From a virus: 20,030 bases of DNA. The stretch is taken from IMG/VR virus record IMGVR_UViG_3300009520_000051. The stretch is one strand, 5' to 3'. The notes beneath the pieces were generated by a model. It did no database searches, was not told the DNA's origin, and was given only the letters and a program-made list of their open reading frames with translations. Within the stretch, counting starts at the first letter, position 1; the number at the start of each line of letters is the position of its first letter. The position numbers were made by a program, and so were the translations under genes. This document shows, piece after piece, positions 12,850 through 15,205 of this stretch.

Positions 12850-13205
12850 CCACGCTCTCTTTCCGGCGCAACGAGGTTCTCCCACGCGCCCTCCTTGTAG
12901 ATCGTCGCCTCGACGTCCCACGGACCCGCCGTGTAGCAGCCGCCGGCCACGAAGACCTTCTTGCCCTTGTACTTCACGAGCGCGCCACACGACCCGTTGC
13001 CCTGCGCGTAGGCCGTCGCGTGCATCTTGATGTCGAGGCCGCGACCCTTGTATTTCATCGTGAGCGCCGAGTGCATGGGGCTCGACTCCTTGGCTACGAC
13101 TTCGCCCTTCTGATCGACGAACTTGAGCACGCGGAGCATGAGCGCGTCGAGCGGCTTGGCCTCCTCGTCCCCCTCGTCCTCATCACGCATGCGACTCCTC
13201 GCCAT
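12846..13205 (-). CDS. Hypothetical protein, 119 aa, with acidic N-terminus
   Basis: Track ORF; it overlaps the 3' end of the AAA gene by 23 nt. Confidence 0.5.
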   Translation of the reverse strand: MARSRMRDEDEGDEEAKPLDALMLRVLKFVDQKGEVVAKESSPMHSALTMKYKGRGLDIKMHATAYAQGNGSCGALVKYKGKKVFVAGGCYTAGPWDVEATIYKEGAWENLVAPERERG

Positions 13206-14853
13206 CGCTCGTCTTGAGGTCGAGAAAGTTCGACACGTACTTGAACAGCTCGAGATCGATCTTGTTCTTCTTCGGGTCGCGCTTGTGGAGCATCCGGCCG
13301 AGCTTCAAGAGGTTCTTGACGTTCCTGCCCGAGATCTTCGGGAACTCGGTCACGAGCTGCCGGATCGTCCCGACCGGCATCTCCATCCCGTACTGCTTCG
13401 AGAGGACGCCCCAGATCTCGACGAGCTGGTCTCGCGTCGGCAGCGCGTACCGGATCCACGCGGTCGCGCGGCTCATGATGGCGTCGTCGATCACGGTCGC
13501 CCGGTTCGACGTGAGGAAGAGCACGCCGCGGTAGTGCTCGAGGACGCGGAGGAACACCCCCACGATAGCGTTCTGCTGGATGTCCGAACCGCGCGCGTGC
13601 ACGTAGACGTCCGCCTCGTCGATGAGCAGGATCGCTCGCCAACGCGACGCGCGCGTGAGCACCGTGAGAAGCTCCTTCTCGACCTTGGACTCCTCCGTGC
13701 CGAGCTGCGAACACTGGACGACGTAGAGCGGCTTCTTGATCTCCTCGGCGAACACCTCCGCGGTGAGCGTTTTGCCGGTGCCGGGCGGGCCGGTCGCGAT
13801 CACGATCGTGCCGCCTGTCTTGCCCTTGATGATATCCTCCATCACCTCCGAGGATCCCTCGACGAGGATCGTAATGAGGGATTTCGTCTGCTCGTCGAGC
13901 ACGAGCTTCGAGGCTGCAGTCTTGTCGTACTCGTACGGCGTGAGGTTCCGGACGTGGATGAGCATGAACTCGTGCCGACCGAGGTCGAACACTTTGACAT
14001 AAGGGTGGACGGGCTTGGCAACGTCGCCATCCTCGTCTTCGTCGTCGTCATCGTCGTCGTCGCTCTTGCCACCCTTCTTCCAGAAGGAAGCGTCGGCCGT
14101 GGTCCCATCCTCGCGATTACGGCTACTCGATCGCTCCTCCTCTTCATCACCGTCGTCCATCACGACGGTAGCCGCTTGCCCCTCCCGCTCCATCGCGATC
14201 TCTTGGTAGCTGTAGTAGCTCTCGGGGTAGCCGGTCCCGACCGCCCTGAACTGCGCACCCGTCAGCGGCGCGAGCCTCTTGTAAAGCTCGATGTCCTCCA
14301 TGTACACGGCGACCGCCTCGTCCGTCTCGAGGTGGTAGCCCTTCGCGGCGAGGATCTCGGGCACCGTCTTGCCCAGGTCCGGGACGTGGAACCTGAGCGA
14401 CTCGCCGTCCGAATACCCGCGCGTCACAGCCTCGAACCTCACGGTCACGTTGGCCTGGCTGCCACTCCGCGGATCCGCCTTGTTGTACGCGATGTGCGCG
14501 ACGAAGTACGGCACGGCGAACCCGTCCGACTCATCGTGAAAGAGCCACTTGTTCGGGGAAGGCTCGACGTACGCCCGGAGGGCCGCTGCGAAGGGCTCGA
14601 GCTTGCCGACCTTGTTGCCGCTCGGATCCGCACGGAGCTTCCTGTAAGAGGTGATCTTCCGGCAGAGAGTCTTGCCCGTCCCGTCGTCATTCTCGTCCTT
14701 CGAGGCGCGCGCGTGGACGGCTTCGAGCTGTTCGTCCGTGAATCTCCCGGCGTCGATGTCGATGAACTGGTCCGCGTCGCGGTACGACACCGCCCGCCTG
14801 ATGGCTTCGGTCTTGACGTCCTTCAGGTACCGGACGCGGATGTGCAGGTTCAC
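13183..14853 (-). CDS. AAA+ ATPase, ~556 aa: unknown ~300-aa N-terminal domain, acidic linker (DDDDDDDEDEDGD), C-terminal classical AAA domain. Start likely GTG at 14853, not the track's ATG at 15027.
   Basis: Walker A GPPGTGKTLT, Walker B ILLIDEADVY, sensor-1 LTSNRA. The first 58 codons of the track ORF are Arg-rich and overlap the upstream gene in another frame. Confidence 0.75.
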   Translation of the reverse strand: MNLHIRVRYLKDVKTEAIRRAVSYRDADQFIDIDAGRFTDEQLEAVHARASKDENDDGTGKTLCRKITSYRKLRADPSGNKVGKLEPFAAALRAYVEPSPNKWLFHDESDGFAVPYFVAHIAYNKADPRSGSQANVTVRFEAVTRGYSDGESLRFHVPDLGKTVPEILAAKGYHLETDEAVAVYMEDIELYKRLAPLTGAQFRAVGTGYPESYYSYQEIAMEREGQAATVVMDDGDEEEERSSSRNREDGTTADASFWKKGGKSDDDDDDDEDEDGDVAKPVHPYVKVFDLGRHEFMLIHVRNLTPYEYDKTAASKLVLDEQTKSLITILVEGSSEVMEDIIKGKTGGTIVIATGPPGTGKTLTAEVFAEEIKKPLYVVQCSQLGTEESKVEKELLTVLTRASRWRAILLIDEADVYVHARGSDIQQNAIVGVFLRVLEHYRGVLFLTSNRATVIDDAIMSRATAWIRYALPTRDQLVEIWGVLSKQYGMEMPVGTIRQLVTEFPKISGRNVKNLLKLGRMLHKRDPKKNKIDLELFKYVSNFLDLKTSDGEESHA

Positions 14854-14924
14854 GACGTTCTCTCCCCGATCGCCGCCACGATGACGGAGACGACGAGGAT
14901 CGCCATGTAGACGATCGCGCTCAT
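14850..14924 (-). CDS. 24-aa hydrophobic micro-peptide MSAIVYMAILVVSVIVAAIGERTS (single TM helix)
   Basis: GGAGGA SD 7 nt upstream. Its ATG overlaps the stop of 14924..15205, and its TGA overlaps the GTG that probably starts the AAA gene. GC3 is about 95%. Confidence 0.35.
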   Translation of the reverse strand: MSAIVYMAILVVSVIVAAIGERTS

Positions 14925-15205
14925 CAGTAATCCTCCGGCAAGAGCGCCGTCGTCGCGGACCGCTCGCCGCGATCATCCTCGGCCTCGGTGATGACCCAAA
15001 GCTTCTTGCCCTTGATCTCGTACGCACTGAGGAGCCGGCCGCCGTCCTTCAGGGCCGCGTCGTTTGTGCGGACATCCTCGGGATCCAGGTCTCCCCAGTC
15101 GCCGGCCGCGTGCCGGGCGATGGCGTTCGTGATCTCGGCCTTCGTGAACGTGTCCAGGGCCGCCGGCGTGCCGACAATGGTGCCTAACTTAAACTTCATC
15201 GGCAT
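14924..15205 (-). CDS. Hypothetical protein, 93 aa (MPMKFKLGTIVG...HAAGDWGDLDPEDV...LWVITEAEDD)
   Basis: Internal ATG at 15205 overlaps the upstream stop. Confidence 0.5.
   Translation of the reverse strand: MPMKFKLGTIVGTPAALDTFTKAEITNAIARHAAGDWGDLDPEDVRTNDAALKDGGRLLSAYEIKGKKLWVITEAEDDRGERSATTALLPEDY

Follow-up and report, generated by a model that had tools for sequence, protein, structure and literature searches.

A PHROG 29662 AAA+ ATPase preceded by a hydrophobic micro-ORF in a large uncultivated phage

The closest described counterparts of the AAA+ ATPase analysed here are AR9 gp082 (YP_009282987) and its PBS1 homolog, from the Bacillus jumbo phages AR9 and PBS1. Among cultured phages, relatives were found in these two alone, and 88% of the protein aligns with them at 35% identity. 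These proteins, labelled 'ATP-dependent protease' and 'AAA family ATPase', display the same full-length architecture, comprising 548 residues versus 556 here, with 35% identity over residues 60-547 for AR9 gp082. Upstream of its ATPase gene, AR9 does not carry the micro-ORF described below but instead a gene encoding a 136-aa 'holin' and an annotated early promoter. No functional study of AR9 gp082, the PBS1 homolog or the ATPase family was found in the literature; a function could be sought in AR9/PBS1, which are available in culture. In addition, a role in membrane-proximal virion assembly has been proposed for the so-called 'BCS1 orthologs' of jumbo phages (PMC7824862).

Family, neighbourhood and start of the ATPase gene

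The ATPase gene is located in a window of 20,030 nucleotides (the whole stretch of viral DNA analysed, IMG/VR record IMGVR_UViG_3300009520_000051), in which the genes of a large uncultivated phage are densely arranged and share one orientation. By profile comparison, the encoded protein belongs to PHROG 29662 over its full length (E 1.6e-89), with residues 60-547 aligned to positions 64-546 of the 548-position profile. The homologs retrieved amount to 2,535, many of them on phage contigs of 100-550 kb; 55 IMG/VR viral loci contain the gene, and the closest relatives are found on contigs of up to 278 kb. Judged from these matches, the family is widespread and strongly conserved in very large phages, with a fixed architecture. 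We consider it moderately probable that the locus encodes a remodelling AAA+ ring of PHROG 29662, starting at GTG 14853, with a lineage-restricted micro-peptide gene placed in front of it.

Conserved neighbour genes are confined to the synteny shared with L060, a locus whose ATPase is 78% identical, and none of them hints at the substrate of the enzyme. The 93-aa gene immediately upstream, whose family was detected by tblastn in 183 plasmids and six phages, is missing in L060 between the homolog of a 66-aa gene and the micro-ORF, and is outside the ATPase module. Scans around the ATPase gene disclosed neither a sigma-70-like promoter nor any terminator-like site on the minus strand; two plus-strand terminator-like matches correspond to the shuffle expectation. 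The coordinates of all features are collected in the table below.

Table. Features of the ATPase locus, in positions of the window
Feature	Coordinates	Strand	Remarks	Basis
AAA+ ATPase gene	13183..14853	minus	556 aa, GTG start 14853, stop codon included	ORF and homolog starts
AAA module, residues 313-556	13183..13917	minus	motif set in the text	
Walker B ILLIDEAD	13609..13632	minus		sequence
Walker A GPPGTGKT	13768..13791	minus		sequence
Family-specific N-terminal region, residues 1-312	13918..14853	minus	parts in the text	
Poly-Asp/EDEDGD run, residues 265-277	14023..14061	minus		sequence
Predicted disordered acidic loops, residues ~233-276	14026..14157	minus		pLDDT
Hydrophobic micro-ORF, 24 aa, MSAIVYMAILVVSVIVAAIGERTS	14850..14924	minus		sequence, codon usage, hydrophobicity
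Spurious 5' extension of the ATPase frame	14854..15027	minus	58 codons, Arg-rich, begins with GTG	
SD-like GGGGAGAG of the ATPase itself	14860..14867	minus	6 nt before GTG 14853, within the micro-ORF 3' end	
Upstream 93-aa gene	14924..15205	minus	plasmid/phage-borne family; codon score 0.80	
GGAGGA Shine-Dalgarno of the micro-ORF	14931..14936	minus	6 nt before the ATG	

Two starts are conceivable for the ATPase, and the preliminary description, made from the window alone, had favoured the GTG at 14853 (14853..14851) over a codon at 15027. The comparative evidence supports this choice: (i) the first residue falls at GTG 14853 in all 25 aligned homologs (alignment A1); (ii) L061 and L062 display an in-frame stop two to three codons upstream of the homologous start; and (iii) the JGI gene call yields an identical 556-aa product (P0001). 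The open reading frame from 15027 encodes 614 residues and, as had been pointed out, its Arg-rich head overlaps the upstream gene, by 104 nt and in another frame; the extension occurs in none of the homologs of alignment A1, and the codon at 15027, given as ATG, reads GTG. Because the 25 homologs begin there and in-frame stops close the frame in L061 and L062, the start of the ATPase is placed at GTG 14853, not at 15027, and annotations would gain from being set accordingly.

The AAA module and the N-terminal region

The canonical ATPase motifs noted at the outset, GPPGTGKT and ILLIDEAD, are present at the positions tabulated, and the AAA module further comprises (i) a sensor-1 residue, N450, (ii) an Arg finger, R462, and (iii) a non-aromatic pore loop, C-S-Q-L-G-T. 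Residues 352-464 match the Pfam family PF00004 (AAA) with 61.3 bits versus a gathering cut-off of 21.2, and the sequence carries the Walker A (GxxGxGKT), Walker B (hhhhDE), and sensor-1 Asn signatures of classical AAA proteins, along with the Arg finger of their second region of homology. The catalytic residues are invariant across 69 sequences. R510, in the SGR motif of the C-terminal helical part, is also invariant and is presumably the sensor-2 position; the protein terminates 30-40 residues past the AAA lid. Some homologs contain an intein in the P-loop.

Pore loop 1 reads Q-L-G-T (invariant C381, Q383, L384, and G385) opposite the K-Y-Y-G of VAT; the aromatic-hydrophobic-Gly arrangement is not present in the ATPase, with Leu occupying the aromatic position. 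An aromatic pore loop 1 is a functional hallmark and no membership criterion for AAA proteins; substrate threading of the classical kind is nonetheless not assured, since the invariant Q-L-G is devoid of the usual aromatic residue. The ATPase would be expected to assemble into an ATP-driven ring; both Walker motifs, sensor 1, and the Arg finger acting in trans show no variation. Such a ring may remodel or unfold a specific protein substrate, with the N-domain choosing the substrate, and would probably act early in infection, a timing suggested by one early promoter, annotated immediately in front of AR9 gp082, a 35%-identical ortholog.

The N-terminal region comprises three parts: (i) an α/β-plus-helical part (residues 1-100); (ii) a β-rich part (residues 103-225); and (iii) a series of short β-strands (residues 226-306), which may form a small barrel. 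About 300 N-terminal residues had been reported as unassignable, and profile searches bear this out, disclosing no Pfam family or PDB structure related to the ~310-residue region; N-domain profile searches against PDB and Pfam returned noise alone (S15 at E 0.012, low-complexity matches), the exception being a small barrel of SH3/Tudor-like type that was matched weakly. On the other hand, the domain described as novel is not peculiar to this locus, given that it defines the PHROG 29662 family and occurs in 531 clusters at 50% identity. In all listed matches the domain is N-terminal, in proteins mostly of ~540-600 aa. According to these comparisons, the region is conserved family-wide and always fused to the same AAA module.

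Seven consecutive Asp plus EDEDGD make up the acidic run that had been described as a poly-Asp linker. The run is indeed there; in the structure model it is not a simple inter-domain linker but part of a predicted disordered acidic loop between β-strands preceding the AAA module, with pLDDT values below 50 at residues 238-247 and 262-274. The position of the acidic loops is kept in all homologs, their length and sequence being variable, and an invariant Trp, W258, lies between the two loops.

The micro-ORF upstream of the ATPase gene

The 24-aa ORF in front of the ATPase gene comprises one hydrophobic stretch of ~19 residues, and the arrangement attributed to it in the preliminary description is entirely visible in the sequence: a GGAGGA Shine-Dalgarno, an ATG whose A is also the last base of the upstream TGA (TGATG), and a TGA overlapping the ATPase GTG (GTGA), a 4-nt stop/start overlap also used by neighbouring genes. 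Among 97 small ORFs of the window (18-45 aa, six frames), the micro-ORF is the sole hydrophobic outlier, with a best 17-residue Kyte-Doolittle mean of 2.93 versus 1.81 for the next-best ORF. Its codon usage scores 0.91 bit/codon at a GC3 of 0.96; the clear genes of the window score 0.77-0.98. Annotations call this probable membrane gene inconsistently; it is called in L003, L004, and on 13 JGI contigs.

A 26-aa version, MSAIIVYMSIIVASVLVLATGKGSLS, is found in L060, where it keeps the SD, a start codon, and the GTGA overlap and differs by two in-frame 3-nt indels and by hydrophobic replacements (GC3 0.81). The L060 micro-ORF, which begins with GTG, has TTGCCGGAGGA in front of it, as does the micro-ORF of the window, though the upstream gene differs, and GGGAAGGG occupies the place equivalent to the SD-like GGGGAGAG of the ATPase. 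In a neutral-drift simulation, in which in-frame indels were not counted, such an ORF was kept in 4% of cases (P ~0.04). The ratio of synonymous to non-synonymous differences between the window and L060 is ~2:9 in the micro-ORF versus 139:115 in the ATPase gene, and hydrophobicity alone, not the sequence, appears to be constrained. The conservation of the micro-ORF refers to one informative relative, L060, plus 12 nt of L062, because a metagenome scan for close relatives retrieved just one contig, L064, devoid of the 5' end.

Co-occurrence with the ATPase had been suggested as a check, and it holds in L060; L061 (74% identical), L065 (63%), L066 (62%), and L067 (60%) lack the micro-ORF in front of their ATPase genes, and a relative was seen in none of ~40 more distant loci. 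The micro-ORF is therefore lineage-specific and not a partner of the family. Altogether, as read from coding signature and conservation, it is most likely a true gene that is limited to the present lineage and encodes a single-pass membrane micro-peptide. The peptide would matter beyond this lineage only if it were demonstrated to interact with the ATPase. The micro-ORF would be translated from its own strong SD, the peptide would insert into the membrane, and the GTGA overlap may feed ribosomes onto the ATPase GTG, a weak start. The translational coupling originally proposed is plausible from the SD and the overlap as an arrangement, its effect on ATPase synthesis being conjectural, and coupling would not be required, given the SD-like element that the ATPase gene itself possesses.

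That same arrangement of strong SD and GTGA overlap would also be expected of a functionless leader, in which ribosomes loading at GGAGGA terminate at GTGA and reinitiate on the weak GTG of the ATPase. The loosely kept amino-acid sequence and the homologs that manage without the micro-ORF agree with such a coupling ORF, as does the minimum-free-energy fold, in which the 5' part of the micro-ORF, half of its length, is base-paired to the SD and GTG of the ATPase. Nevertheless, the predicted fold around the ATPase start is no more stable than that of shuffled sequence (z -0.11), which leaves sequestering of the ribosome binding site unsupported, and the ATPase SD again weighs against a leader. 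Furthermore, the retention of hydrophobic character exceeds drift expectation, the high GC3 in both loci and the gene-like codon usage suggest selection on the reading frame, and a pure leader is considered unlikely. A fusion of peptide and ATPase by -1 frameshifting was envisaged because the ATPase frame is open upstream; the micro-ORF contains no X-XXY-YYZ slippery site, the upstream frame is closed in homologs, and the fusion was rejected.

Alternatively, the micro-peptide could anchor the AAA+ ring to the membrane as a separable part, or regulate it, replacing the N-terminal transmembrane helices of FtsH, Msp1/ATAD1, and Bcs1, or resembling the small peptides that modulate FtsH, so that the pair acts at the membrane. 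Many classical-clade AAA proteins are membrane-anchored, and adjacency and stop/start overlap are retained in L060 despite the different upstream gene; however, the adjacency is just inherited, since the L060 synteny spans the whole region. Membrane proteins also precede the ATPase elsewhere, including (i) an unrelated 31-aa transmembrane ORF in L021/L059, with a GGAGGA SD and ending 6 nt before the ATPase start, (ii) a 91-aa two-TM protein in L054, ending 3 nt before the ATPase start, and (iii) the 'holin' of AR9. Before inspection, small transmembrane ORFs upstream of the ATPase seemed enriched (4 of 46 loci versus 8 of 731), but the candidates in L051 and L053 proved to be antisense shadows of a divergently transcribed gene, and because two independent lineages remain once these are removed, the excess (two in ~40 versus a 1.1% background, P ~0.07) is not significant. 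Most loci are devoid of such an ORF. A general association with upstream membrane proteins of any size was likewise rejected, their frequency being no higher than the ~10% of phage genes assumed from general knowledge. A dedicated anchor or regulator is accordingly regarded as quite improbable, and the preferred interpretation remains a micro-peptide gene confined to one lineage.

Comparison with known systems

Compared with classical-clade AAA proteins, such as the AAA module of FtsH/FtsHi, Vps4, p97/VAT-type enzymes, spastin, and Msp1/ATAD1, the ATPase displays an unrelated N-domain and the Q-L-G pore loop 1, and possesses neither a peptidase domain nor a transmembrane helix. A Bcs1-like translocase or chaperone acting in membrane-proximal virion assembly is very improbable. 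No BCS1_N domain and no N-terminal TM anchor were found in the ATPase, and Bcs1 is not its closest AAA relative. FtsH comprises an M41 peptidase with HEXXH and N-terminal TM helices, both lacking here, and the NCBIfam FtsH models score 21-22 bits on the ATPase versus cut-offs of 600-1008.

The label 'ATP-dependent protease', carried by the family in RefSeq and PHROG, is without domain support, given that Pfam finds AAA families only, and no protease domain was detected in the scanned neighbours; by its domain content, the ATPase is not a protease. The related proposal of the preliminary description, an abortive-infection or effector pair, finds its best match in IetA of the IetAS defence system, whose profile ranks first for the AAA module (residues 308-517) in both PADLOC and NCBIfam. 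This similarity is weak and of generic AAA level (PADLOC E 1.3e-14; NCBIfam 42.9 bits versus a cut-off of 510), the N-domain of IetA differs, and the ATPase is phage-encoded with no IetS-like protease adjacent. The DNA here is that of a phage, and phages conserve the ATPase gene, which is found in 55 IMG/VR loci and interrupted elsewhere by P-loop inteins; the micro-ORF is no conserved partner, being absent from most homologous loci. Both the defence and the protease readings are hence exceedingly improbable, and the remodelling ring is preferred.

The micro-ORF resembles the small hydrophobic phage and bacterial proteins produced from overlapping, coupled ORFs, likewise with 24 residues, a ~19-residue hydrophobic stretch, its own SD, and a 4-nt overlap, but displays no sequence relative outside its own lineage. 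A bolder synthesis, to which a low probability is assigned, would have a separate 24-residue TM peptide from the same ribosome run bring the AAA+ ring to the host membrane or gate it there, as a split FtsH/Msp1/Bcs1-type machine, with the family acting as an early-infection remodeller whose previously unseen substrate-recognition domain is structurally common to giant eukaryotic viruses.

As to that domain, a model of the N-domain without the AAA part matches only giant-virus AAA ATPases in BFVD (Foldseek E 1e-6 to 3e-5, probability 1.00), namely uncharacterised proteins from Klosneuvirus KNV1 (A0A1V0SHU6), Terrestrivirus (A0A3G4ZLE4), Homavirus, Hyperionvirus, and Mimivirus LCMiAC01, at 10-12% identity, TM-scores of 0.41-0.48, and large rmsd. 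The structural comparison suggests that the layout of an N-domain followed by an AAA module is common to this phage family and the ATPases of giant eukaryotic viruses.

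The ATPase start and its N-terminal domain

The 614-aa long ORF of the AAA+ ATPase overlaps the upstream gene by 104 nt in a different frame, and its first codon, taken as an ATG in the preliminary description, reads GTG. The start which that description preferred, the GTG at 14853, is the correct one judging from the comparative evidence: (i) 25 of 25 aligned homologs (44-89% identity; alignment A1) share the start M-x-L-x-[IV]-[RK]-V, in exact register with the Val of this GTG, and none displays the Arg-rich 5' extension; (ii) the ATPase starts with ATG in locus L062 (89% identical to the window ATPase) and with GTG in locus L061 (74%), with in-frame stops two and three codons upstream, respectively; and (iii) the product predicted by JGI gene calling (P0001) is the same 556-aa protein. 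The Walker motifs and the Asp-rich run are as originally described. Immediately upstream, the ATG of a 24-codon micro-ORF shares its A with the stop of the preceding gene (TGATG), and its TGA overlaps the ATPase GTG (GTGA).

Coordinates of the ATPase locus and of the neighbouring genes
Feature	Position	Strand	Basis or remark
Long ORF, 614 aa	13183..15027	-	first codon GTG
Walker A, GPPGTGKT	13768..13791	-	sequence
Walker B, ILLIDEAD	13609..13632	-	sequence
Seven Asp plus EDEDGD run	14023..14061	-	sequence
Micro-ORF MSAIVYMAILVVSVIVAAIGERTS, 24 codons	14850..14924	-	sequence
GGAGGA SD of the micro-ORF	14931..14936	-	6 nt before the micro-ORF ATG
SD-like GGGGAGAG of the ATPase itself	14860..14867	-	sequence
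93-aa upstream gene (MPMKFKLGTIVGT...LLPEDY)	14924..15205	-	tblastn family
66-aa Cys/His-rich gene (...CRHHECVC...)	15205..15405	-
RtcB RNA ligase	4566..5990	-	E 6.9e-85
PadR-like regulator	6688..7110	-
DUF3846 protein	11252..11572	-
Phosphoribosyltransferase-domain protein	3166..3963	-

A full-length match (E 1.6e-89) places the ATPase in PHROG 29662. The only relatives found in culture are the Bacillus jumbo phages AR9 and PBS1, one protein of which shares 35% identity with the ATPase across 88% of the ATPase length. Of the candidates scored in a large protein database, 2,535 are relatives, mostly of 540-600 aa and many on contigs of 100-550 kb, and 55 IMG/VR viral contigs carry a relative. 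The N-terminal region of about 300 aa had been called novel and unassignable; Pfam indeed detects the AAA domain only (61.3 bits), but novelty does not hold. Residues 1-311 alone, searched against 1.84 billion representatives, retrieved 531 clusters, and in all listed matches the region is N-terminal, in proteins of the same size (fragments and intein-bearing versions excepted) and never in any other architecture. By this search, the N-domain therefore defines the family rather than being a novelty of this locus.

Some family members of 900-936 aa (P0034, P0079, P0089, P0112) contain intein and homing-endonuclease domains. In P0034, the only one of the four aligned, the intein of ~337 residues interrupts the P-loop of Walker A, separating GPPGTGK from T; we take such an insertion to indicate strong constraint on the site.

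The AlphaFold2 model of the ATPase (69 sequences; pLDDT 87.9, pTM 0.83) predicts an N-domain of three parts by secondary structure: (i) an alpha/beta-plus-helical part, residues 1-100; (ii) a beta-rich part, residues 103-225; and (iii) short strands at 226-232, 252-254 and 277-306. Foldseek comparison of an N-domain-only model with predicted viral structures gave six matches (E 1e-6 to 3e-5, TM-scores 0.41-0.48), all 'AAA family ATPases' of giant eukaryotic viruses (Klosneuvirus, Terrestrivirus, Homavirus, Hyperionvirus and Mimivirus LCMiAC01). Since a query devoid of the AAA part still retrieves AAA family ATPases, the models point to a common N-domain-plus-AAA layout, the scores being moderate, and hint at one family spanning jumbo phages and Nucleocytoviricota.

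The putative membrane micro-ORF

The micro-ORF is probably real, in keeping with the preliminary description, and is an under-annotated small gene. Its codon-usage score (0.91 bit/codon) falls within the 0.77-0.98 of clear genes, with a GC3 of 0.96 against 0.85-0.89; of the window's 97 small ORFs, it alone is strongly hydrophobic; its SD is strong, and its 4-nt overlap follows the packing of the neighbouring genes; and it is called in some JGI annotations (loci L003 and L004; 13 contigs). A counterpart occurs in L060, a 278-kb contig with a 78%-identical ATPase, as GGAGGA-AACC-GTG followed by (M)SAIIVYMSIIVASVLVLATGKGSLS, and its end likewise overlaps the start of the ATPase as GTGA. The two versions differ by two 3-nt indels, and most substitutions within the hydrophobic stretch exchange one small or hydrophobic residue for another (A/S, L/I, V/A, I/L, A/L, I/T). 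Neutral-drift simulation at the observed 24% divergence, in-frame indels not being counted, kept the open frame, start codon and hydrophobicity in only 4.3% of trials. The ~2 synonymous versus 9 non-synonymous codon changes, compared with 139 versus 115 in the ATPase, nevertheless argue against strong constraint on the peptide sequence.

L060 lacks the 93-aa upstream gene, which leaves the micro-ORF immediately behind the 66-aa gene's homolog. Because of this absence at a syntenic position, the 93-aa gene looks like a mobile insert bounded by the GGAGGA site. It has no match in Pfam or PHROG; by tblastn, members of its family occur in 183 plasmids (81 conjugative; Vibrio, Shewanella, Pseudomonas, Paenibacillus) and in 6 phages, one of them Tunturi_5, of 309 kb, from Tunturiibacter (Acidobacteriota). 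In codon usage the 66-aa gene scores weakly (0.27 bit/codon); its called frame is the real one by conservation, given 86% protein identity in L060 versus 44% for the overlapping alternative frame. L060 also encodes, at 19673..21656, a >863-aa protein with a Pfam MVP_shoulder (major vault protein) match, unusual for a phage.

Co-occurrence with the ATPase, raised in the preliminary description, holds in L060 and fails in L061, in L065-L067 and in the more distant loci. L061 shows, in its place, an inverted repeat that by eye looks like a terminator, and the ATPase's own SD; nothing comparable occurs in L065, L066 and L067 (60-63%), and no relative was seen in about 40 more distant loci. In L062 only 12 nt are available; there, the corresponding frame closes with ...TCKP at an ATGA overlap, a stretch compatible with the micro-ORF but too short to be informative. 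By this distribution, the micro-ORF is lineage-specific.

A scan for small TM-like ORFs ending just upstream of the ATPase gave 4 of 46 loci versus 8 of 731 control gene starts. Those of L051 and L053 were rejected on inspection as antisense shadows of a divergent gene. An unrelated 31-aa TM ORF, MPHLNPYIAWWFAWFGAVVLLPVIHKIQKSK, is convincing (L021 5823..5919, the same sequence as L059): it is preceded by a GGAGGA SD, carries a basic tail and stops 6 nt short of the ATG of an ATPase with 39% identity. In L054 a two-TM protein of 91 aa ends 3 nt upstream of the ATPase, and in AR9 a 'holin' lies upstream of the ortholog, behind a separate promoter. Two independent lineages in about 40, at a background of 1.1% (P about 0.07), are at best a hint that a small membrane ORF is a recurrent companion; for upstream membrane proteins irrespective of size there is no enrichment.

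Proposed action and comparison with known systems

Invariance of the Walker A and B motifs, sensor-1 N450 and Arg finger R462 speaks for an active ATPase that forms rings and belongs to the classical clade, a group that unfolds or remodels proteins. An invariant Q-L-G makes up pore loop 1, where the usual aromatic residue is lacking, a situation resembling p97 D1; the substrate grip may thus be atypical. The ATPase contains no peptidase domain, so its database label 'ATP-dependent protease' is unsupported. In AR9 (NC_031039 68257..69948), the ortholog gp082 is immediately preceded by an early promoter in the RefSeq annotation; the window gene is surrounded by many small genes of the same direction, and RtcB, PadR and DUF3846 are nearby. 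The invariant catalytic residues, missing peptidase, early promoter and gene setting together favour a putative early-acting protein remodeller, with an N-domain that would select the substrate; speculatively, basic substrates that bind DNA might be drawn to the acidic loops. No neighbour conserved across the ATPase loci hints at a substrate.

The RtcB, PadR-like, DUF3846 and phosphoribosyltransferase-domain genes are surrounded by many small genes without matches, and no tRNA genes were found in the window. A literature search found no functional paper on AR9 gp082 or the PBS1 homolog; 'g082' in the AR9 transcription paper is a putative holin, the gene numbering being off by one relative to the RefSeq record.

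Among known systems, three identities were rejected: (i) FtsH, the ATPase lacking a peptidase and a TM helix; (ii) Bcs1, the BCS1_N domain being absent and the structural rank lower; and (iii) IetA, with 42.9 bits against a 510-bit cut-off and no protease partner. A comparative study describes 'BCS1 orthologs' in all major jumbo-phage groups and proposes membrane-proximal assembly (PMC7824862); a Bcs1 assignment of the present ATPase is not supported by the tests here. Overall, the preliminary description is borne out in what it observed, save for one misidentified codon, and in part in how it interpreted it. Nothing supports the abortive-infection or effector pair initially suggested, and the analogy fails. 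The ATPase belongs to the AAA superfamily and PHROG 29662 and is a new member of a known, uncharacterised phage family, which as a whole merits experimental work in AR9 or PBS1.
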